This document shows, piece after piece, positions 2,896-56,337 of a DNA stretch of 64,000 nucleotides (position 1 is its first letter; every line of letters begins with the position of its first letter). The stretch lies in contig CAYVEO010000001.1 in the NCBI GenBank assembly GCA_964449965.1, forward strand, positions 15,189 through 79,188, written 5' to 3'. Made by a program: the position numbers and the translations under genes. The DNA is from an uncultured Planctomycetia bacterium (GTDB lineage: Bacteria > Omnitrophota > Gorgyraeia > CAYVEO01). The notes beneath the pieces were generated by a model that saw only the letters and a program-made list of their open reading frames with translations, was not told the DNA's origin and made no database searches.

Positions 2896-3228
2896 TCAGC
2901 CGGTAAATTGGGACAGTCCCCCTTTGCTTAATTTTTTCTCTATGTTCAACAATTCTTTCTTGAGGTCCAGCCCAAGACTGAATCCTCCCAAGGAACCCGG
3001 TTTTGAGGATACTACCCTGTGGCATGGAATGAGAAGGGGTAATGGATTCTTCCTTAGTGCCTGGCCAACTGCACGTGCGGCATTGGGCTTGCCTATTTTC
3101 TTCGCAATCCATTTATATGAGCGTGTTTGTCCGAAAGGTATGCTTAAGGCAGCCATATAGACATTTCGCTCAAAAGGGGTTATCTTGGCGAGTTTGTTCC
3201 AGTCTATGGGTATTTTTGTTTTTTTCAT
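2896..3228 (-). CDS. ogt: methylated-DNA-protein-cysteine methyltransferase (MGMT/Ogt), short single-domain form
   Basis: Active-site motif LIPCHRVV with the Cys retained (not the Trp of alkyltransferase-like proteins), then GGxxLGxxxKxxLLxxE. 110 aa; no N-terminal domain. Confidence 0.8.
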   Translation of the reverse strand: MKKTKIPIDWNKLAKITPFERNVYMAALSIPFGQTRSYKWIAKKIGKPNAARAVGQALRKNPLPLLIPCHRVVSSKPGSLGGFSLGLDLKKELLNIEKKLSKGGLSQFTG

Positions 3229-3256
3229 AACGGCAAGGGGACAGTCCCCGGTGTTC

Positions 3257-4687
3257 CTATTTATTGAAGTATTCTTTAATATTCCGGGCGGATTTTTTAT
3301 TCATGCCTGCTACCCTTGTCAGGCTCTCTATATCAGCATTCTTTATATTCTCAATAGAGCCAAAGTATTTTACCAGATTTACTTTTCTCTCCTTTCCAAT
3401 CCCTGGTATATTATCTAACTCCGACTCCATCGGGATTTTGCTTCTTAAGCCCCTATGGTAGGTTATAGCAAATCTGTGAGCCTCATCCCGTATTCTCATG
3501 ATAAGGTGTAATACCCTGGAATTGGGTGGCAGGATTATAGGGGATGGCTTATCTTTTAAAAATATTGTCTCATGACCTTTGGCTATACCGATAACAGGGA
3601 CAGTTTTTAGATTTAACTTGTTCAACTCTTCACAGGCAGATGAGAGATGCCCCTTACCCCCGTCAATGATTATGAGGTCAGGTAAATCCAGCCCTTCTTC
3701 TGTTGACAGACGAGACGTCTGTCCTACCAATATTCTCTTATACCTCCTGTGCACCACCTCTTTCATCATGGCGTAATCATCTATCCCTTCTACCCATTTT
3801 ATTTTGAATTTCCTGTACCTGCCCCTGTCAGGTTTTCCATTGAGGAATGTCACCATTGACCCTACAGCCTCTTTTCCATATATATCAGAGATATCAAATG
3901 CCTCAATCCTCCTTGGAGCCCTGGGTAAACTTAGCACCGCTTTGAGTTCTTCTGTTTCATCTATTGCCCTGTATCTTTGTGCCCTGGTAACGATAGTAGT
4001 CAATGCCTTTATCTGGTCCCTTATCCGGGCAGCCTTTTCATACTCTAATTGTAAAGCCATGCTGTTCATCTTCTTAAAAAGATATTTCAAGAGTTCCTCT
4101 TTCTTCCCTTCTAAGAACAGGCAGGCGTGTCTAACAATCTCATTATAATCCTCTTCTAAAATCTTGCCAACGCAAGGACCTGCACATAATCCTATGTGAT
4201 AATCCAGACATGCTGTTTTACATATAGACGGACATGCCCTTATAGGGAATACCTTTCTGAGCATCTTAACAGATTTTCTTAAGAGTTTGGCATCTGTCCA
4301 TGGCCCATAGTATTTAGCCCCGTCATCTCTTTTACCTCTTGTTACGAATATCCGAGGGAGGCGTTCGTTGGTTGTAATCTTAATTAGCGGATAACTCTTA
4401 TCGTCCTTTAGCGCTGCATTGTACCGGGGACTATGTTCCTTGATGAGACTTGCTTCAAACAATAGTGCCTCTGCCTCAGAGCCTGTCCTGATTACCTCAA
4501 TGTCACTGATACAAGAAACTAATTTATCTAATTTCGTAGATAGTTTTCGTGAGGCATAAAAGTATGAGGAAACCCTCTTTTTTAAAGACGATGCCTTACC
4601 TATATAGATTATCCCGCCTGTCTTATCTTTCATTAAGTATACGCCGGGTGAGTCGGGTAATTCTTTTATCGTCTCTTTAAGAGCCAT
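3257..4687 (-). CDS. uvrC: excinuclease ABC subunit C (short, 476 aa)
   Basis: GIY-YIG N-terminus (GVYLMKDKTGGIIYIGKASSLKKRVSSYF), UVR helix, RNase H-like endonuclease region and C-terminal HhH (NIPGIGKERKVNLVKYFGSIENI). Confidence 0.85.
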   Translation of the reverse strand: MALKETIKELPDSPGVYLMKDKTGGIIYIGKASSLKKRVSSYFYASRKLSTKLDKLVSCISDIEVIRTGSEAEALLFEASLIKEHSPRYNAALKDDKSYPLIKITTNERLPRIFVTRGKRDDGAKYYGPWTDAKLLRKSVKMLRKVFPIRACPSICKTACLDYHIGLCAGPCVGKILEEDYNEIVRHACLFLEGKKEELLKYLFKKMNSMALQLEYEKAARIRDQIKALTTIVTRAQRYRAIDETEELKAVLSLPRAPRRIEAFDISDIYGKEAVGSMVTFLNGKPDRGRYRKFKIKWVEGIDDYAMMKEVVHRRYKRILVGQTSRLSTEEGLDLPDLIIIDGGKGHLSSACEELNKLNLKTVPVIGIAKGHETIFLKDKPSPIILPPNSRVLHLIMRIRDEAHRFAITYHRGLRSKIPMESELDNIPGIGKERKVNLVKYFGSIENIKNADIESLTRVAGMNKKSARNIKEYFNK

Positions 4688-6225
4688 AGTAATAATTCCT
4701 TAGTCTCCTGGACCCTGAAAATAAAAGAGGCTAATAAGAATGCCGCAATGCCTGCCGGTATTGACACTGCAAGACCTGCTATCTTATTTTGTGATAGGAT
4801 TAGACATGCCGCACCCATTATCAGGCTGGAAAGCAGTATACGAACAAATGAATCAAGAAGTTTCATCCCCCCAAGATTACCTATTTTCTTTCTCAATAAC
4901 ATGAACAGCATAGAGAAGTTTATCATACTTGAAATACTTGATGCCAATGCCAGTCCTCCTATTTTCAAAGGATTCATCAGGAGCAGGCTCAATACCACGT
5001 TGATAATTAATGCGAACGCAGCTGTCTTAACAGGGGTCATCGTATCCTGGAGAGAATAAAATACGGGGACAAGTAAATTTACCCCTGTAAATGCAAATAG
5101 ACCCATAGAATAATAGAATAAGGCAGAAGATGTTATGCCGGTTGAATAACTGTTAAACGCCCCCCTTTCAAATAAGACATGAGTAATCTCACGACCCAGT
5201 ACCATAAGGCCTATACTTGCGGGGATGGTAATAAATAAGACCGCCCTTAATGAAAAGAGCAGTGTGTTCTTTAGTTTTTCCATATCATTCCTTGCCGCAT
5301 GGATGGACATTTGAGGGAATGCAGCCGTAGCAATGGATATACCAAATACAGCCATAGGCAGTTGAAATATCCTGTTGGCATAATACAGGGCAGCAACGCC
5401 CCCCTCTCCTACGATAGAGCCAAAAGAGGCTAAAGCCGAACTTATAAATACGTTAAGTTGATAAACACACGAACCTATCCCCCTCGGTATCAATAGAAGA
5501 CCTATCCTTTTGGCTGCCGGATGATAAAGTTTCATACTCGGTCTTAAATCCATACCCTTTTTCCGCAGGATAGGAATCTGAATGATAAGTTGGACAACCC
5601 CTCCGAGAAGGACGCCTATTGCCAGCCCCATTGCCCCTATCTTATATTTCTGGCATAGTAACAAGGCAGATAGTATCAAAAATATATTGAACAGGCAAGG
5701 TCCAATGGCAGGGATAGAAAAATATTTCAATGAGTTAAGTATACCGCTGCCATACGCAGTCAAACCCACTAAAAGGAGGTACGGGAACATCACCTGTGTG
5801 AGTCTGACTGTAAGATGAAATTTTTCAGGGTCACTGACAAAACCGGGGGCGATAAGGCGGACTATTACAGGTGAAATGAGTATACCAACTATGCTTATAC
5901 TTGCCAATATAACGAGCATCAGATTCATAAGGACATTGGCAAGTTCCCAGAATTCCTTCTTATCTTTCTTTGTAAGATACTCTGCAAAGACCGGGATAAA
6001 TGCGGCATTGGTAGCACCCTCACCCACAATGTCTCTTAATAGATTGGGGATTCTGAACGCCTGGAAAAAAGCCTGTGCAGGAGAACCTGTTCCGAAAAGC
6101 CGGGCAATTATCATATCCCTGACATAACCGAGTATACGACTTGCCATTGTCCCAATGGCTATTACGCCTGCCGACTTAGCGATGGATTTGTTACTAAAAG
6201 AATCTTTTTTATTGACAATTTGCAT
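4666..6225 (-). CDS. murJ: lipid II flippase MurJ/MviN
   Basis: 519 aa, polytopic. N-terminus AGVIAIGTMASRILGYVRDMIIARLFGTGSPAQAFFQAFRIPNLLR is the MurJ signature region. Confidence 0.85.
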   Translation of the reverse strand: MQIVNKKDSFSNKSIAKSAGVIAIGTMASRILGYVRDMIIARLFGTGSPAQAFFQAFRIPNLLRDIVGEGATNAAFIPVFAEYLTKKDKKEFWELANVLMNLMLVILASISIVGILISPVIVRLIAPGFVSDPEKFHLTVRLTQVMFPYLLLVGLTAYGSGILNSLKYFSIPAIGPCLFNIFLILSALLLCQKYKIGAMGLAIGVLLGGVVQLIIQIPILRKKGMDLRPSMKLYHPAAKRIGLLLIPRGIGSCVYQLNVFISSALASFGSIVGEGGVAALYYANRIFQLPMAVFGISIATAAFPQMSIHAARNDMEKLKNTLLFSLRAVLFITIPASIGLMVLGREITHVLFERGAFNSYSTGITSSALFYYSMGLFAFTGVNLLVPVFYSLQDTMTPVKTAAFALIINVVLSLLLMNPLKIGGLALASSISSMINFSMLFMLLRKKIGNLGGMKLLDSFVRILLSSLIMGAACLILSQNKIAGLAVSIPAGIAAFLLASFIFRVQETKELLLWLLKRR

Positions 6226-6534: not shown

Positions 6535-6579
6535 ATTAAGCCGACCAAGGTCGGCAACTACAATATTTTGAAATTCCTG
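6535..6579. repeat. 45-nt conserved intergenic hairpin element, copy 1 (6-bp stem plus CAAG/CUUG tetraloop, then AACTACAATATTTTGAAATTCCTG)
   Basis: Near-identical to 32643-32687. The only internal differences are a compensatory pair in the stem (GCCGAC/GTCGGC here, GCCGAG/CTCGGC there) and one flanking A/G. Confidence 0.7.
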
Positions 6580-6582
6580 CTA

Positions 6583-7527
6583 TTAAGTTATAGTACAAAG
6601 ATTTATTATTAACCACTCCATTGCGACATTCTCAGGTATCCGGCTTGTTTTAAGGAAAGAGTCTACGCTTAACAGGATTTCCAATTTTCTTTCTATTTCT
6701 CCTTTATGAAGATTCCTTGCCTGTCTTATGAATTCAGGAAATCGTTCTCTCTTCATCCACAATACCCTGCTAATACTATCAACCGAATATCCTTTACTCA
6801 ACATATAAGAAGCTATGTATAGCCTTCTTATATGCCATGCGATTAAACCTATGGTCTCATGCGGCTTTTTCCCTTCTCGCGCCAGTAATAAAGAAATCTT
6901 TAATGCAGCCTGAACATCGTTCTTTCCTATAGCATCTCCCAGGTCAAATATATTATCAATGCCGCCCTCTACTACAACCTTTTCTATATCTTCCGCACTA
7001 ATCTCATCCCTTTCCCCGGTATAACAGGTCAATTTATCTATTTCATGAGAAATGGACTCTAAATCGTTAGGGGCAAATTCCTTCAGTGTCTCTATAGCAG
7101 TAGAAGATATACTCTTTCCCCTTGTTCTCACCTCACGGGATATCCACGAGTCTATTCCCGGTTTATTGAGCGGCTTGCAATCTATTGCCTTTGCATTTCT
7201 TATTGATGCAAACGACTTGTCTTTAAGGAATTCTTTCCCGCCTATCAAAACCATGCACGTGGTCTCTTTTAAAGAAGCACAGTATCCGGCTAACACTTCT
7301 CTGTCCTGTGCTCTTAATTTGTCTGCGTCCTTTACAACCACCATTCTCTTATCCGCCATAAATGGAAGGGTATTAGCGGCATCTAAAATATTAGAAATCC
7401 CGGCATCTTTTCCAAAAAAGATGTTGTAATTAAACTCCTTAAATTCACCCCCTATCAATTCCTTCTTGACTCTCTGAAATGCCTCTTCTTTTAGAAAATC
7501 CTCTTCCCCGCCGATGAGTATTACCAT
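6583..7527 (-). CDS. holA: DNA polymerase III delta subunit
   Basis: 314 aa. N-terminal DNA pol III delta fold (MVVVKDADKL...), downstream of lptE in the conserved lptE-holA arrangement. Confidence 0.7.
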   Translation of the reverse strand: MVILIGGEEDFLKEEAFQRVKKELIGGEFKEFNYNIFFGKDAGISNILDAANTLPFMADKRMVVVKDADKLRAQDREVLAGYCASLKETTCMVLIGGKEFLKDKSFASIRNAKAIDCKPLNKPGIDSWISREVRTRGKSISSTAIETLKEFAPNDLESISHEIDKLTCYTGERDEISAEDIEKVVVEGGIDNIFDLGDAIGKNDVQAALKISLLLAREGKKPHETIGLIAWHIRRLYIASYMLSKGYSVDSISRVLWMKRERFPEFIRQARNLHKGEIERKLEILLSVDSFLKTSRIPENVAMEWLIINLCTIT

Positions 7528-32642: not shown

Positions 32643-32687
32643 ATTAGGCCGAGCAAGCTCGGCAACTACAATATTTTGAAATTCCTG
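32643..32687. repeat. 45-nt conserved intergenic hairpin element, copy 2 (in the nadA leader, downstream of panD)
   Basis: ATTAgGCCGAgCAAGcTCGGCAACTACAATATTTTGAAATTCCTG. The stem pair is flipped relative to copy 1. Confidence 0.7.
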
Positions 32688-32714
32688 TACTCTGAATTAG
32701 ATTCTCGTTATCTT

Positions 32715-32739
32715 GACAGGCGGGACGCCTGTCCTACTT
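32715..32739. repeat. GC-rich post-stop hairpin element, copy A (GACAGGCGGGACGCCTGTCCTACTT); the panD stop codon lies inside it
   Basis: On the minus strand TAGGACAGGCG-TCC-CGCCTGTC gives an 8-bp stem and 3-nt loop. Matches 51173-51197 at 24 of 25 positions. Confidence 0.65.
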
Positions 32740-33090
32740 TATCTTTTTTATCTTATTCCTTTCATCCAAAAATACAATCTTTGGCTTAAGAGACTTAGCA
32801 TCATTGGTTTCCATAAGGCAATAAGAGATTATAATCACAATATCTCCAATTTCAGCCCAGCGTGCAGCAGCCCCATTCATACATATCGTGCCTGAGCCGT
32901 TTGGACCCTCCATAACGTAAGTTTCTAATCTTGAACCATTGTTCAGATTGACAATCTGCACTTTTTCATTTGGCAGTATATCCGCGGCAGCAAGTATCTT
33001 CCTGTCTATCGTGACACTACCCATATATTTAAGGTTCGCATCAGTAACAGTGGCATGGTGTATCTTTGACTTGCACATTATCCTTAACAT
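32734..33090 (-). CDS. panD: aspartate 1-decarboxylase
   Basis: [33 protein letters not shown] with the Gly-Ser self-cleavage site. Confidence 0.9.
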
Positions 33091-42141: not shown

Positions 42142-42942
42142 TCATGCCCCTCCTTTCACTATCTGAACAAACGACTCTAACTTAAGACTTGCACCGCCAA
42201 CCAATGCACCGTCAATGTCTTTTTCTTTCATTAAATCCTCTATATTGTCAGGCTTGACGCTACCGCCGTATTGTATCCTTATAAGTCCGGAAACCTCTTC
42301 ATTATACATATTAGATATGAGTTTCCTGATAAAGGAATGAACCTCCTGCGCCTGCTCCGGTGCAGCTGTCCTTCCGGTCCCTATAGCCCATACAGGTTCG
42401 TAGGCTATTACAATCTTTACAATCTCTTCCTTGCTTATTCCTGATAATCCTTTTTTCATCTGTCTCTCTATGACTTTAAACGTCTCGCCCTTTTCCCTCT
42501 CACTCAAGGATTCCCCTGCACAGATTATGGGAATTAATCCGCATGTGAGCGCAGCCCTCGCCTTCCTGTTTACCATATCATCGGTCTCGTCAAATAACGT
42601 CCGCCGCTCTGAATGGCCTACAATGACGAACCTCGCACCTGCATCCTTTATCATATCACCAGATACCTCACCTGTCCAGGCGCCTTCTCTTTCCCAGTAC
42701 ATATCCTGTGCCCCTGAGTCTATATTGGACCCCTTGACTATTTTATTTACCTCATAGAGGGCAGTAAAAGGAGGGCATAGAACTATATCAATGTGAGACA
42801 CATTATACAATTCCCTGCGTAAGCCCTTTGCTAATTCAACTGCCTCTCCTATGGTCTTGTTCATTTTCCAATTTCCAGCAATTATTCGCCTGCGCATTAT
42901 TACCTCCCGAGAAAATTGGGACGGTTCTATTTTTTGCAGCAA
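42142..42942 (-). CDS. tpiA: triosephosphate isomerase
   Basis: IAGNWKMN, VGHSERR, IAYEPVWAIGTG. Confidence 0.9.
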   Translation of the reverse strand: MLQKIEPSQFSREVIMRRRIIAGNWKMNKTIGEAVELAKGLRRELYNVSHIDIVLCPPFTALYEVNKIVKGSNIDSGAQDMYWEREGAWTGEVSGDMIKDAGARFVIVGHSERRTLFDETDDMVNRKARAALTCGLIPIICAGESLSEREKGETFKVIERQMKKGLSGISKEEIVKIVIAYEPVWAIGTGRTAAPEQAQEVHSFIRKLISNMYNEEVSGLIRIQYGGSVKPDNIEDLMKEKDIDGALVGGASLKLESFVQIVKGGA

Positions 42943-44129
42943 AAAATAGAACCGTCCCTTAACGCTGCTATTCCCGGCAGTTCTTTACCTTCCAGGAATT
43001 CTAATGACGCCCCGCCGCCTGTAGAGACGTGTGATACCTTGTTCTCCAATCCAAATTGTGAAAAGGCACTCGCGGTATCACCCCCGCCTATTACGGTCAC
43101 CGCATCCAGCCCCGTTATAAATTCCGCCACTTCCCTCGTCCCCTTGCTGAAAGGTTCAATTTCAAATACACCTAACGGGCCATTCCACAGGATAGTTTGT
43201 GCATCTCCAAGCGCCCTTTTAAATAGATGGACTGTCTCAGGGCCTATATCTACACCAAGCATATCTTCCGGAATATCTCCAGAGACTATCATGGACTCTG
43301 CTTTTTTATCCAGTTCCCTGACTACCACATGGTCAGTTGGTAATATAAGTTCACCCCCCATATTGGTTACCTTGGTTAATAAATCCTTTGCGTATTCTAT
43401 CCTGTCCTTTTCTAATTTTGATTTACCTATCCTTTCACCTCTGGCTGCCAGGAACGTATAAGCCATGCCGCCGCCTATAAGGAACTTATCCACTTTATCA
43501 AGGAGGTGTTCTATAACGCCTATCTTATCTGATACCTTTGCCCCGCCTAAAATAACCGCAAATGGTTTCCGTGGAGAATCAATTGTCTTCTGTAGATATC
43601 CTATTTCTTTCTCCATTAAAAACCCGCCTACGGCAGGCAGGAATCCAGCGACCCCGCACGTTGATGCATGGGCACGATGGGCTGTGCCAAAAGCATCATT
43701 TACGAATATATCACCAAGGAGTGAGAGTTTCTTTGCAAAATCCCTTTCGTTTTTCTCCTCTTCCAGATGGAACCTGACATTCTCAAGTAACAGGACGTCC
43801 CCGTCCTTCATCTTCCGGACAGCATCCTCTACCTCCTTACCCACGCAATCAGATGTGTACGTAACTCTTTTATTAAGCAGTTCCTCTAATCTCAGGGCAA
43901 TAGGCTTTAGCCTCAATCCTTCTACTACCTTGCCATCGGGTCTGCCCAGATGGCTCATCAAGATAACCTTTGCCCCTTTATCTAATGCATATTGGATAGT
44001 TGGCAGTGCTGACTTTATTCTCGTGTCATCGGTAATCTTAAGTTCCTTATCCATTGGAACATTAAAATCAACCCTCATTAATAAACGTTTGCCTTTTATA
44101 TCTACATCTTTTATGGTCTTTTTGTTCAT
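42927..44129 (-). CDS. pgk: phosphoglycerate kinase
   Basis: [23 protein letters not shown]. Confidence 0.9.
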
Positions 44130-50130: not shown

Positions 50131-51148
50131 TAACCTCCCTTAGATATTTTGCAGCATCCTCCGGCGGCGTCGGATTTATATGACATCCTGTTCCCCATTC
50201 AAATCCTGCTACCTTTGTCAGCCTCGGCATTATCTCTATATGCCAGTGATAATCCTGCTCTACCGTCCTCCAGTATCCCGCTTTTGGAATTCTAAACGGG
50301 GCTGTATGTATCACATAATTATAAGGCGGGTCTCCGAGGGCAACCTTCAGCTTGCGCATAATGGTTCTGAGCATCTTTGCTAAATATTCAATACTGGGTT
50401 TCTTTATAGCAGAGAAATCACAGGAATGCTCCTTGGGAAGTATCCATACCTCAAAAGGAAACCTTGGTGCAAATGGAGTAATTGCCACGAATCCATCCAG
50501 GTCCATGACTAATCTTTCCTGGGAATCCATATCCTGCTTTATTACGTCGCAGAAGATACACCGCTCTTTGTAGTCGTAATATCTTCTTGCCCCCACAAGC
50601 TCCTCCTTGACCAATTTGGGATTGACAGGGGTTGCTATAAGCTGGGAATGGGAATGCCTTATGGAACTTGCCCCTGCGAGGGAGCCATAATTCTTAAATA
50701 CCAGGACATATTTAAATCTGCGGTCCTTGTGAAGGTCATTTATCCTCTCTATGTAGGTAAGGAGCACCTTATTTATCTGTCCATCATCCAGGTCTGCGAT
50801 ACCTGATACGTGTTTAGGCGTCTCTATTATTACCTCATGTGCACCGACACCGTTCATCATATCATACATCCCGGACCCTCTTCTACCCAGGTCCCCTTCT
50901 ATTTTAAGGACAGGGTGAATACTCGGAACGACGCGTATCTGCCATCCACGGGTATCCGGCTTACGCGCATCCGGGTTTCTGACAGCATATATCTCATGAG
51001 GCGTCCCTCCCTCATTCCCTTCGCAGAAAGGACATTGCCCCTGCATCGGGGGTTCAACGTTCTTGGAAAAGTCGTTTGGGCGTTTTGCGCGTTCTGTAGA
51101 GATAATTACCCATCTACCAACTATCGGGTCTTTCCTTAATTCCGGCAT
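50117..51148 (-). CDS. galactose-1-phosphate uridylyltransferase-family (GalT/HIT) nucleotidyltransferase, paralogue 2
   Basis: CPFCEGNE. RHSHSQLIA. 343 aa. Tandem with paralogue 1; the two overlap by 14 nt. Confidence 0.7.
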   Translation of the reverse strand: MPELRKDPIVGRWVIISTERAKRPNDFSKNVEPPMQGQCPFCEGNEGGTPHEIYAVRNPDARKPDTRGWQIRVVPSIHPVLKIEGDLGRRGSGMYDMMNGVGAHEVIIETPKHVSGIADLDDGQINKVLLTYIERINDLHKDRRFKYVLVFKNYGSLAGASSIRHSHSQLIATPVNPKLVKEELVGARRYYDYKERCIFCDVIKQDMDSQERLVMDLDGFVAITPFAPRFPFEVWILPKEHSCDFSAIKKPSIEYLAKMLRTIMRKLKVALGDPPYNYVIHTAPFRIPKAGYWRTVEQDYHWHIEIMPRLTKVAGFEWGTGCHINPTPPEDAAKYLREVNENA

Positions 51149-51172: not shown

Positions 51173-51197
51173 GACAGGCGGGACGCCCGTCCTACTT
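51173..51197. repeat. GC-rich post-stop hairpin element, copy B (GACAGGCGGGACGCCCGTCCTACTT)
   Basis: Begins 1 nt after the TAA stop of the upstream minus-strand gene. Lies in a 48-nt spacer before the next gene. On the minus strand GACGGGCG-TCC-CGCCTGTC forms the same stem as copy A with one G.U pair. Confidence 0.65.
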
Positions 51198-52497
51198 ATA
51201 TTTTCTGCAAAAGATACAGAAAATCACTTGGGTTTATAACACCCAGGACATTCTTCTCCTCGTCCTGGACGACTATCAATCCTGCTGGTTCTTCTTTTGC
51301 TTTATTCAGGGCAACCTTCAAAAGTTCATCTGGTGAAACAACTGTGACCGTTCTTTTCATTACCTCTTCCACGCGCTTTTCTAATCCGTCAAGGACAGGC
51401 TGAACAACATGGGGATAAAGACTCACAATACTGTTCACCTTATTTTTAATGTACCGGTAAAATACGCTCGTCAATATCTTGTTGTAACTAATTGCTATCG
51501 GGTAGAATGGTTTGCCTTCAATAAAATTCAAATGGCTTGATAGGGCAGTCTGCCCTGTATCTTCGTCTATAGCCAGGAAATAACGCAGACTGCTGTCAGG
51601 GATGTTGTTTTCTTCATCTTCAGGTATAGCCGCTAAATAAGTCATCTGGTAAACTTCATCCATTGAGGTATTCAACTCCTTGTAATTCTTGCCAATATAA
51701 TCTGCTAACTCGTCATCCTGGTCCCGGAAAATCGTAGAATATTTTTCTAACGTATCTATGGCATCGCTCAAAAATATCCCTAAGGCAACATCCTCTGCGT
51801 ATAATAAACCCCCGGCTATAAGGGCGGCATCATCGGATTGTCCGGGCCCAATCTTGTGGCGGATATAAAGATACCTGACCTCGCCCTTTTTAAACTTATA
51901 TAAATCCGCCTCGTCAATAATTAACCCCTTCTTCTTGTAGATATAGAGTTGGTCTATATGTTCCTGATGCGCCAGTAATTCTCCGTCTAAACCCATCTCC
52001 TCCATAACGTTTATGTTGATTAGATAACATTTGCCATATCCAATCCTGATATTATATCTATTCTCAGCCTCGTGTCTTATGAAACTATCATCTCTCAGGC
52101 CGCCGATGTACATCCCTTTTAGAACGTCCCTTGGAACAACCGCTCTTTTTTTGAAGAGAGGCACCCCCAAAAATGGAACCCCATTTCCATTTACAAGTTT
52201 GTCCCGAACTTTGCCATTTATAACGTCCCTGGCAAATTCCGTTATATCGTCTATCAATGACTGCCTTTTCCTCTTCACTACCTCAGGTTCCATTCCTACA
52301 GCCTCCACGATGTCATCTATCGTGGTATTTACATAGCGATATTTGCGGAAACTGCCGGCACCATTATGCGCCCTGCCTTCAATGGATTGAACGAATAGCA
52401 GTTCTTCTATATCCGGTGACGTATTAAGATGTTCCTGTCTCTTTAAATGTTTAAAATCCTGACGGATTAATTCCGGAGGAGCTACCCCTTTTAACAT
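51196..52497 (-). CDS. hypothetical protein with C-terminal CBS-like domain
   Basis: 433 aa. C-terminal GLIVVQDEEKNVLGVINPSDFLYLL resembles a CBS pair. No confident family for the body. Confidence 0.3.
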   Translation of the reverse strand: MLKGVAPPELIRQDFKHLKRQEHLNTSPDIEELLFVQSIEGRAHNGAGSFRKYRYVNTTIDDIVEAVGMEPEVVKRKRQSLIDDITEFARDVINGKVRDKLVNGNGVPFLGVPLFKKRAVVPRDVLKGMYIGGLRDDSFIRHEAENRYNIRIGYGKCYLININVMEEMGLDGELLAHQEHIDQLYIYKKKGLIIDEADLYKFKKGEVRYLYIRHKIGPGQSDDAALIAGGLLYAEDVALGIFLSDAIDTLEKYSTIFRDQDDELADYIGKNYKELNTSMDEVYQMTYLAAIPEDEENNIPDSSLRYFLAIDEDTGQTALSSHLNFIEGKPFYPIAISYNKILTSVFYRYIKNKVNSIVSLYPHVVQPVLDGLEKRVEEVMKRTVTVVSPDELLKVALNKAKEEPAGLIVVQDEEKNVLGVINPSDFLYLLQKI

Positions 52498-56240: not shown

Positions 56241-56337
56241 TGGCGGAGAGGCCGGGATTCGAACCCGGGCTAGATCCTTTCAGACCTACTAACGGTTTAG
56301 CAAACCGCCCCCTTCAACCGTACTTGGGTACCTCTCC
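56241..56337 (-). tRNA. tRNA-Ser (anticodon GCU), class II with long variable arm, CCA encoded
   Basis: rc reads GGAGAGG-TA-CCC-AAGTACGGTTGAA-GGG-G-GCGGT-TTGCTAA-ACCGT-(23-nt variable arm)-CCGGG-TTCGAAT-CCCGG-CCTCTCC-G-CCA. Cloverleaf with U33, anticodon GCT, A37, T-loop TTCGAAT. Confidence 0.85.

Follow-up and report, generated by a model that had tools for sequence, protein, structure and literature searches.

A GC-rich hairpin at stop codons of an uncultured Omnitrophota bacterium is very probably a GTAG-tagged REP element

Structure and position of the hairpins

In the stretch of DNA analysed here (the window, 64 kb), the sequence GACAGGCGGGACGCC(T/C)GTCCTACTT occurs on the plus strand at 32715-32739 and 51173-51197, and in both places it touches the stop codon of a gene encoded on the opposite strand. 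The question raised by this locus is whether the hairpin is a signal placed at stop codons, as a previous sequence-only reading had proposed, or an element that came to lie there by other means. Our scan of the window confirmed both copies and gave no further match to the 25-mer with up to 3 mismatches (0 expected in shuffles). On the minus (coding) strand both of them read GTAG, then GAC(A/G)GGCG, the loop UCC and CGCCUGUC, which makes an 8-bp stem with a 3-nt loop. The element proper, named REP-A here, has 23 nt (32715-32737 and 51173-51195), the last 2 bases of the 25-mer being flank. In copy 1 the head GTAG occupies 32737-32734, the 5' arm GACAGGCG 32733-32726, the loop TCC 32725-32723 and the 3' arm CGCCTGTC 32722-32715; in copy 2, also on the minus strand, the head lies at 51195-51192 and is followed by the 5' arm GACGGGCG, the loop TCC and the 3' arm CGCCTGTC.

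The GC-richness that had been pointed out is evident (74% in REP-A vs. 42% in the window), and the 8-bp GC stem with its UCC loop was recovered by minus-strand folding, at -13.9 kcal/mol for copy 1 (z = -5.1) and -13.2 kcal/mol for copy 2 (z = -3.0). The single difference between the copies changes an A-U pair to a G.U pair, the only one in the stem of copy 2, and the fold is kept; this previously described conservation of the structure holds for the minus strand only, since the plus strand has an A.C mismatch at this position and does not keep the fold (-8.9 kcal/mol, z = -1.3).

The contact with stop codons is real in these two copies, whose stems begin 0 and 4 nt past the stop. The panD ORF (32734..33090, minus) ends with the TAG at 32734-32736. 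These are bases two to four of the GTAG head, and this TAG, which was correctly seen as part of the conserved sequence, directly abuts the REP-A stem. In the case of the CBS-domain ORF (51196..52497, minus), the stop TAA (51196-51198) is followed by GTAG and then by the stem. The earlier minus-strand formula TA[G/A]-GTAGGAC is a little inaccurate at the panD junction, which reads AAG-TAG-GAC. Both copies are located within operons: copy 1 is followed by a second type of hairpin (REP-B, see below) and then by the nadA ribosome-binding site, and between the end of copy 2 and the downstream GalT-like start codon, at 51148, there are 24 nt.

No U-tract was found 3' of the copies on the coding strand, as had been noted, where the sequences that follow are AAGAUAACGAG and AUUUAACAAUAUC, and no terminator was predicted on the minus strand at either of the two stop-codon sites. 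On the plus (antisense) strand, CTACTTTATC comes after copy 1, which a simple scan flagged as terminator-like; for copy 2 the scan gave no full-stem terminator and flagged only a 5-pair sub-hairpin on the plus strand. A gathering-level search of the window with Rfam 15 matched only a tRNA, and around copy 1 a permissive search yielded nothing but noise (E >= 2.2); a CRISPR-DR29 match (E = 2.2) was rejected as part of this noise, with no repeat array present. A tRNA-Ser(GCU) is located at 56241-56337, minus.

The family had been described as having two copies; both exist, but a third one had been missed. We looked in the window for GC-rich hairpins preceded by GT[AG]G, first with perfect stems only and in a second pass with one G.U pair permitted. 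The first pass gave 7 matches corresponding to 4 distinct hairpins, against 0.37 expected from shuffles; the second added REP-A copy 2, with a total of five elements having stems of at least 7 bp, all of them on the minus strand. REP-A copy 3 (3705..3727, minus) reads GTAG GACAGACG TCT CGTCTGTC and lies inside uvrC; its stem carries a G-C to A-T change that is fully compensated. The REP-A stems of the window, all with 8 bp and 3-nt loops, have stabilities from -12.1 to -13.9 kcal/mol. The other two elements belong to REP-B: copy 1 (32648..32669, minus; GTAG TT GCCGAGC TT GCTCGGC) is in the panD-nadA spacer, 45 nt downstream of REP-A copy 1, and copy 2 (6540..6561, minus; GTAG TT GCCGACC TT GGTCGGC) is found after holA and differs by a compensated G-C to C-G change. 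Furthermore, a contig 100% identical over 5,660 bases (L253) extended the window by 8.2 kb at its high end, and it carries REP-A copy 4 (L253 710-732, 7.5 kb past the window; loop TCT), which is antisense to its operon and begins 2 nt past the stop of an upstream gene with the Pfam domain Oxidored_q2 (PF00420). About 72 kb of the genome thus contain 4 REP-A and 2 REP-B copies. All the copies of the window present the 5' GTAG head, unpaired, on one strand only. Inverted doublets (REPINs), the arrangement typical of families that are actively spreading, occur frequently in these same families elsewhere; none was found in the window, where the copies are singletons and the panD spacer has REP-A and REP-B arranged head-to-tail.

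The window is strongly asymmetric, with ORFs of at least 150 aa covering ~58 kb on the minus strand vs. ~7 kb on the plus strand. The GC skew of the plus strand is ~-0.18 throughout, and all five GTAG hairpins are on the G-rich minus strand. As the coding strand is also the G-rich strand, orientation with respect to transcription is here inseparable from orientation with respect to replication. A replication-related orientation bias is expected for REP-type (Y1/HUH) transposases (PMC6006769).

Empty sites in relatives and position with respect to genes

All five GTAG elements of the window are absent at the orthologous sites of relatives whose flanking proteins are 77-97% identical (~93% DNA identity where measured). 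These alignments show that the REP-A copies of the window are recent insertions and not conserved regulators. Close relatives are present in the groundwater samples ERZ1292645, ERZ1292646 and ERZ1292660.

One copy is intragenic: uvrC (ORF 3257..4687, minus) carries copy 3 in frame. The insert has 27 nt (3705-3731) and adds 9 residues without a frameshift (VGQTSRLST in the alignment), the hairpin itself encoding VGQTSRLS. These residues are present only in the window protein and in one 97%-identical homolog, and they are absent in 38 other Omnitrophota UvrC proteins (the 89% and 77% homologs and 36 further ones). The UvrC homologs place the organism in Candidatus Omnitrophota. At the DNA level, the empty sites of L242 and L243 show a clean 27-nt insertion; that of L242 reads AT-AGTAG-AA, with GTAG at the junction, a single case that hints at possible targeting. 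The comparison with L242 (5.2 kb aligned, 93% identity) showed three window-only indels of at least 27 nt, namely the 50-nt block with REP-B copy 2 after holA (6545-6594), the uvrC REP-A and a 33-nt block with a GGGGACTGTCCCC palindrome; apart from these, no window-only indel reaches 6 nt except an 8-nt gap where the alignment ends.

The panD-nadA junction offers a before-and-after comparison. In the relatives L244 and L247 (PanD identity 94% and 87%, respectively) the panD TGA is embedded in the nadA ribosome-binding site and the distance between both genes is 6 nt, vs. 108 nt in the window. There, ~100 nt (REP-A, spacer and REP-B) stand between ...GAT and TAAGGAGTGA, and this whole block is absent in L244 and L247. 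The window PanD is thus one residue shorter at its end. The insertion removed the final codon together with the ancestral TGA, and the stop of the gene is provided by the TAG in the head of the REP. The nadA ribosome-binding site remains intact at ~100 nt from panD, and the comparison suggests that panD and nadA were probably translationally coupled before being separated by the insertion. REP-A copy 1 is also absent at this junction in L245 and L246. In these contigs (L245 1532-1556; L245 PanD identity 91%) another GTAG hairpin, GTAG CG GTCGGAT TT ATCCGAC, lies exactly at the panD stop, and its head likewise supplies the TAG. This could be the result of either a repeated insertion at one site or the replacement of one hairpin by another.

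As for copy 2, the CBS-GalT junction is empty in L252, in which the TAA stop overlaps the ribosome-binding site, and in L249-L251 (CBS-domain protein 97% identical) it is occupied by an unrelated ~100-nt repeat. There, a ACAGGAATTTCAAA module (L249 ~5525-5540) precedes a different palindromic repeat, GAGATTCTTCGGCTGAGCCTCAGAATGACA... The same module, ACAGGAATTTCAAA(ATATT), precedes REP-B in the window (32670-32688 and 6562-6580), in L209 (2024-2042) and in L223; both window copies of REP-B share an upstream ACAGGAATTTCAAAATATT stretch reaching 32688 (copy 1) and 6580 (copy 2). In L209 the module/REP-B unit is located between a promoter-like TTGACA/TATAT pair and the ribosome-binding site of the next gene.

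Other repeats were observed in the region. Three GGGACAGTCCC palindromes (2873-2883, 2910-2920 and 3238-3248) flank a methyltransferase-like (ogt-like) ORF (2896..3228, minus), and the 33-nt block missing in the 93%-identical relative L242 (3229-3261) contains one of them. The sequence comparison indicates that they form a separate, third repeat family whose presence varies between relatives. A link between REP-A and these palindromes, which had been suggested from an echo between their half-sites, was rejected as a family relation: the palindromes have no GTAG head and only 5 bases in common with REP-A. In addition, L242 (~1880-1965, near window 6250) and L249 (5505-5610) carry ~80-100-nt repeats of the types GTCATTGCGAGGA... 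and GAGATTCTTCGG...CAGAATGACA, at intergenic positions where the window has no repeat. L249 presents, opposite window ~53263, a 33-nt in-frame insertion, CTATGCGAAAGCTCGACCGAAGGTCAGGCAAAG, which contains a small palindrome and lies inside a formyltransferase gene; the window does not have this insertion. The longest palindrome of the window (42918-42958) is an inverted repeat of 20 bp without mismatch, GGGACGGTTCTATTTTTTGC / GCAAAAAATAGAACCGTCCC, whose arms are 1 nt apart.

The position of the hairpins with respect to genes was evaluated in other loci. In 58 low-GC loci (419 kb) we found 117 GT[AG]G-tagged hairpins, vs. 4-8 with control tetranucleotides. Between genes of the same direction, 34 were sense and 15 antisense; 5 lay between convergent genes, 3 between divergent genes and 33 inside called ORFs. 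The distance from the stop to the head went from -4 to 630 nt, being of 20 nt or less in 15 of 39 cases; a distance of -4, observed three times, means that the head supplies the stop. In the GC-rich loci 23 convergent and 11 divergent positions were counted with crude gene calls; it should be noted that these calls are stop-to-stop ORFs, which overcount intragenic matches, and the low-GC loci were hence preferred. The GTAG hairpins thus have a bias to 3' ends and to the sense strand, as published for REPs, and follow no rule. The association with stop codons and strand exists elsewhere as this bias, but the idea of a signal placed at stops did not hold: 15 of the 49 hairpins between same-direction genes are antisense at the mentioned range of distances, and in the organism itself one copy is in frame within uvrC, another is antisense (L253) and the sites are empty in relatives.

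Distribution in other genomes and search for a transposase

REP-A was searched for in a genome collection with one genome per species, using only a 17-nt core in which two variable stem positions were left free. Among the matches listed there were contigs (41-74% GC) of Planctomycetota, Verrucomicrobiota, Acidobacteriota, Thermodesulfobacteriota, Cyanobacteria and Schekmanbacteria. The identical 23-mer was present, among those matches, in contigs labelled Acidobacteriota, Verrucomicrobiota, Thermodesulfobacteriota, Schekmanbacteria and Oscillatoria (Cyanobacteria), in addition to this Omnitrophota genome, which is not itself among the matches listed, and close variants were common in Planctomycetota. 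The sole conserved flank among the matches listed was G-T-R-G at positions -5 to -2 of the strand with the TCC loop (G 113, T 94, A 45 plus G 73, and G 102, in 133 listed matches), and one further complementary pair closes the stem beyond the scanned core. An exact GT[AG]G was observed in 74 of 134 listed matches, vs. 3 of 133 at the mirror position; the free stem positions were complementary in 109 of the 134, and G.T pairs were biased 10:1 toward the GTAG strand. Many listed matches are inverted doublets with a related hairpin, and some, with neither head nor complementarity, are chance matches in GC-rich coding DNA. All-against-all clustering of the ORFs from 120 loci of the listed matches gave no recurrent neighbour gene family, such as a RAYT.

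The fetched loci were searched for RAYT transposases with E. coli RayT as seed. RAYT-like ORFs appeared in eight of them, and 7 of 7 tested matched Pfam Y1_Tnp (PF01797) above the cut-off. No Y1_Tnp/RAYT is encoded in the 64-kb window, and none of the fetched loci, among them the 120 from the matches listed, showed a RAYT with REP-A itself at its flanks, which is the main weak point of the assignment to the REPs. L096 and L071 hold a RAYT-like ORF, the one of L096 being flanked by inverted GTAG hairpins of another family.

A metagenome scan with REP-B gave at least 120 loci, 81 of them with a palindromic match and 39 with non-palindromic chance matches in GC-rich coding DNA. In 5 of the 81 listed palindromic loci, REP-B lies inside a Y1_Tnp/RAYT gene (L153 250-834, L185 1626-2282, L193 4182-6029, L195 2-274 and L199 7618-8148). 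In these genes REP-B (TTGTAGTTGCCGAGCTTGCTCGGC) encodes IVVAELARL, in the first helix of the RAYT, and aligns without gaps with E. coli RayT and other RAYTs; the hairpin stays perfect through compensated changes while the flanks diverge. The RAYT gene of L153 has a second REP-B in another reading frame (SCRACSAK).

REP-A and REP-B co-occur on contigs retrieved with the REP-B pattern alone (L122, L169, L200 and L209), and in L209 GGGACTGTCC precedes a REP-A copy by 16 nt. The organism of the window is also present in the Logan assembly of SRR4343428. One of its Logan contigs (L121 5235-5304) ends inside the REP-B copy after panD, and several metagenome contigs end <100 nt from a REP-B match (e.g. 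L123, L125, L128, L138 and L151). These contig ends in or near REP-B fit with repeats that break assemblies.

Identity of the element, alternative explanations and significance

Taken together, the hairpin is very probably a GTAG-tagged REP, that is, a 23-nt non-autonomous mobile DNA element in which an unpaired GTAG head precedes a perfect, GC-rich palindrome of 8 bp with a loop of 3 nt; it is an ordinary REP of a known class and not a dedicated stop-codon signal. The GTAG-tagged REP superfamily was defined by an unpaired GTAG or GTGG beside a short GC-rich palindrome (Di Nocera, De Gregorio and Rocco 2013, PMC3733652). According to that survey, the superfamily includes families of the PVC group (Planctomycetes-Verrucomicrobia-Chlamydiae), such as GTAG-17, -19 and -20 of Opitutus terrae, in which heads are mutated to GTGG, and those of Rhodopirellula baltica. 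Its members show frequent G-T pairing, often supply a TAG stop, are found for the most part 3' of ORFs, where the neighbouring genes run in the same direction or converge, and insert in uvrABC and other repair genes (PMC3733652). REP-A shares with them the unpaired GTAG/GTGG at one end, a GC-rich stem of 6-13 bp with a 2-3 nt loop, complementary stem subfamilies, G-T pairs, the TAG stop taken from the head and the in-frame insertion in an excinuclease gene. On the other hand, the REP-A copies here are singletons and not dimers, and the survey did not cover Omnitrophota; REP-A is placed here in the superfamily as a whole, rather than in one of its 24 numbered families (PMC3733652). The REP-A sequence had no match in the supplements of PMC3733652 or in the text of PMC2817692, and a full-text literature search for the element sequences returned only an unrelated human-genetics paper.

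An identical architecture is that of the REP of Stenotrophomonas maltophilia (REPSm / SMAG, group 3 RAYT), described as "23 nts... 8-bp perfect palindrome and a 3-nt loop" (PMC8266576). The RAYT of that species cuts this REP as single-stranded DNA, leaves the complementary strand intact and depends on GTAG for the cleavage (PMC8266576). The 23-nt layout is the same, but the stem and loop sequences differ, and for REP-A no cognate RAYT was found in the window or in the fetched loci. The REP/BIME of E. coli (RayT = YafM) also have a GTAG head 5' of a GC-rich hairpin and are extragenic, after stops; in contrast, they are longer (~35 nt), their activity depends on an imperfect, bulged stem, and they commonly form BIME clusters in which the orientation alternates. 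The subterminal hairpins of IS200/IS605 are similarly accompanied by a 5' tetranucleotide, the "guide", which is read as single-stranded DNA by a Y1/HUH transposase, and the orientation of the window copies on the G-rich strand fits a lagging-strand template; unlike these elements, REP-A is a solitary 23-nt unit, with no transposase or tnpB between paired ends. Rho-independent terminators are also GC-rich stem-loops downstream of genes, but REP-A lacks a U-tract on the transcribed strand and lies inside operons.

On the basis of the REP literature, the GTAG strand would fold as single-stranded DNA, and a RAYT (Y1/HUH) encoded elsewhere in the genome would recognize, cut and copy it. Insertions would survive mainly in short spacers past stops or in tolerant protein linkers, because there they would do the least harm. 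The overlap between TAG and the stop is a consequence of the REP head being GTAG, as already described (PMC3733652). Once transcribed, a hairpin of -13 kcal/mol may block 3'-5' exonucleases, and at 0-4 nt from a stop it may hinder terminating ribosomes, by analogy with the E. coli REPs located within 15 nt of the stop, which lower translation (Liang et al. 2015, as summarised in PMC12306157). Such mRNA effects, as stabiliser or by interference with termination, are plausible as side effects of individual insertions.

Among the alternatives, the one that survives best accepts a REP origin and assumes that the panD and CBS copies have since been co-opted to tune operon expression and are kept by selection, whether because panD is uncoupled from nadA or because the upstream cistron is made more stable; we consider this quite unlikely. 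The intact nadA ribosome-binding site moved away from panD, the stable hairpins and the different GTAG hairpin that L245/L246 independently carry at the panD stop, again using TAG, would agree with it, as would the documented influence of E. coli REPs on the decay of mRNA and on its translation (PMC12306157; PMC3733652). Nevertheless, recurrent insertion is equally explained by target preference plus tolerance, and even relatives with flanking proteins identical at 94-97% do not all have the element, which leaves little time for selection.

The reading from which the question started, a dedicated cis-acting RNA signal selected at stop codons (a 3' stabiliser, a ribosome-release or termination signal, or an RNA-binding-protein site), is less probable still, with only a very slight chance of being correct. 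It accounts for the copies 0, 4 and, in L253, 2 nt past a stop, for the G.U substitutions tolerated only on the GTAG strand and for the 34:15 preference for the sense orientation in the low-GC loci, and the lowering of translation by stop-proximal E. coli REPs (PMC12306157) could be added in its favour. However, a selected signal is difficult to reconcile with orthologous sites that lack it in relatives with 77-97% protein identity, with one coding copy (uvrC) and one antisense copy (L253), with distances of up to 630 nt, with the lack of any gene-family association across the 120 loci from the matches listed, or with the lack of an Rfam family match; moreover, the conserved GTAG head would have no role in it, yet it is the known determinant for the transposase. 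As for a non-mobile DNA-level site or terminator (an antisense terminator, or a site for a nucleoid protein or gyrase), it is hardly conceivable: apart from the terminator-like CTACTTTATC after plus-strand copy 1, copy 2 offers only the 5-pair sub-hairpin and an A.C mismatch in the full stem, the family consensus has no T-run, and the insertion polymorphism, the intragenic copy and the GTAG head are left unexplained.

That the hairpin is a GTAG-tagged REP has consequences for annotation, as these hairpins should be labelled REP elements and not terminators or regulatory RNAs. This label explains the TAG stop foreign to panD, the 9-residue insert of UvrC, operon spacers longer than those of relatives and the assembly breaks at the repeats. 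The capture of stops and the insertion in uvrABC by REPs are already described (PMC3733652), and existing knowledge of REPs is unchanged; what the window provides is a set of clean before-and-after pairs for REP insertion in the uncultured phylum Omnitrophota. In the panD pair, the insertion destroys a stop embedded in a ribosome-binding site and supplies its own, which illustrates how REPs come to abut stops.

The less ordinary aspect is the occurrence of nearly identical 23-mers across phyla, among the matches listed. REPs are often species-specific, and near-identical 23-mers in distant phyla are unusual for them. It is a rather doubtful proposal that REP-A (GT[A/G]G + [G/C]AC-N-GGCG + TCC + CGCC-N-GT[C/G]) constitutes an unusually conserved family spanning many phyla. 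If this were true, it would point either to a single RAYT lineage that spreads horizontally and keeps a fixed substrate, or to recognition of the G-UCC-C hairpin by a conserved host factor; in both cases REP-A would be actively changing operon junctions and stop codons, as well as a DNA-repair protein, of uncultured bacteria.
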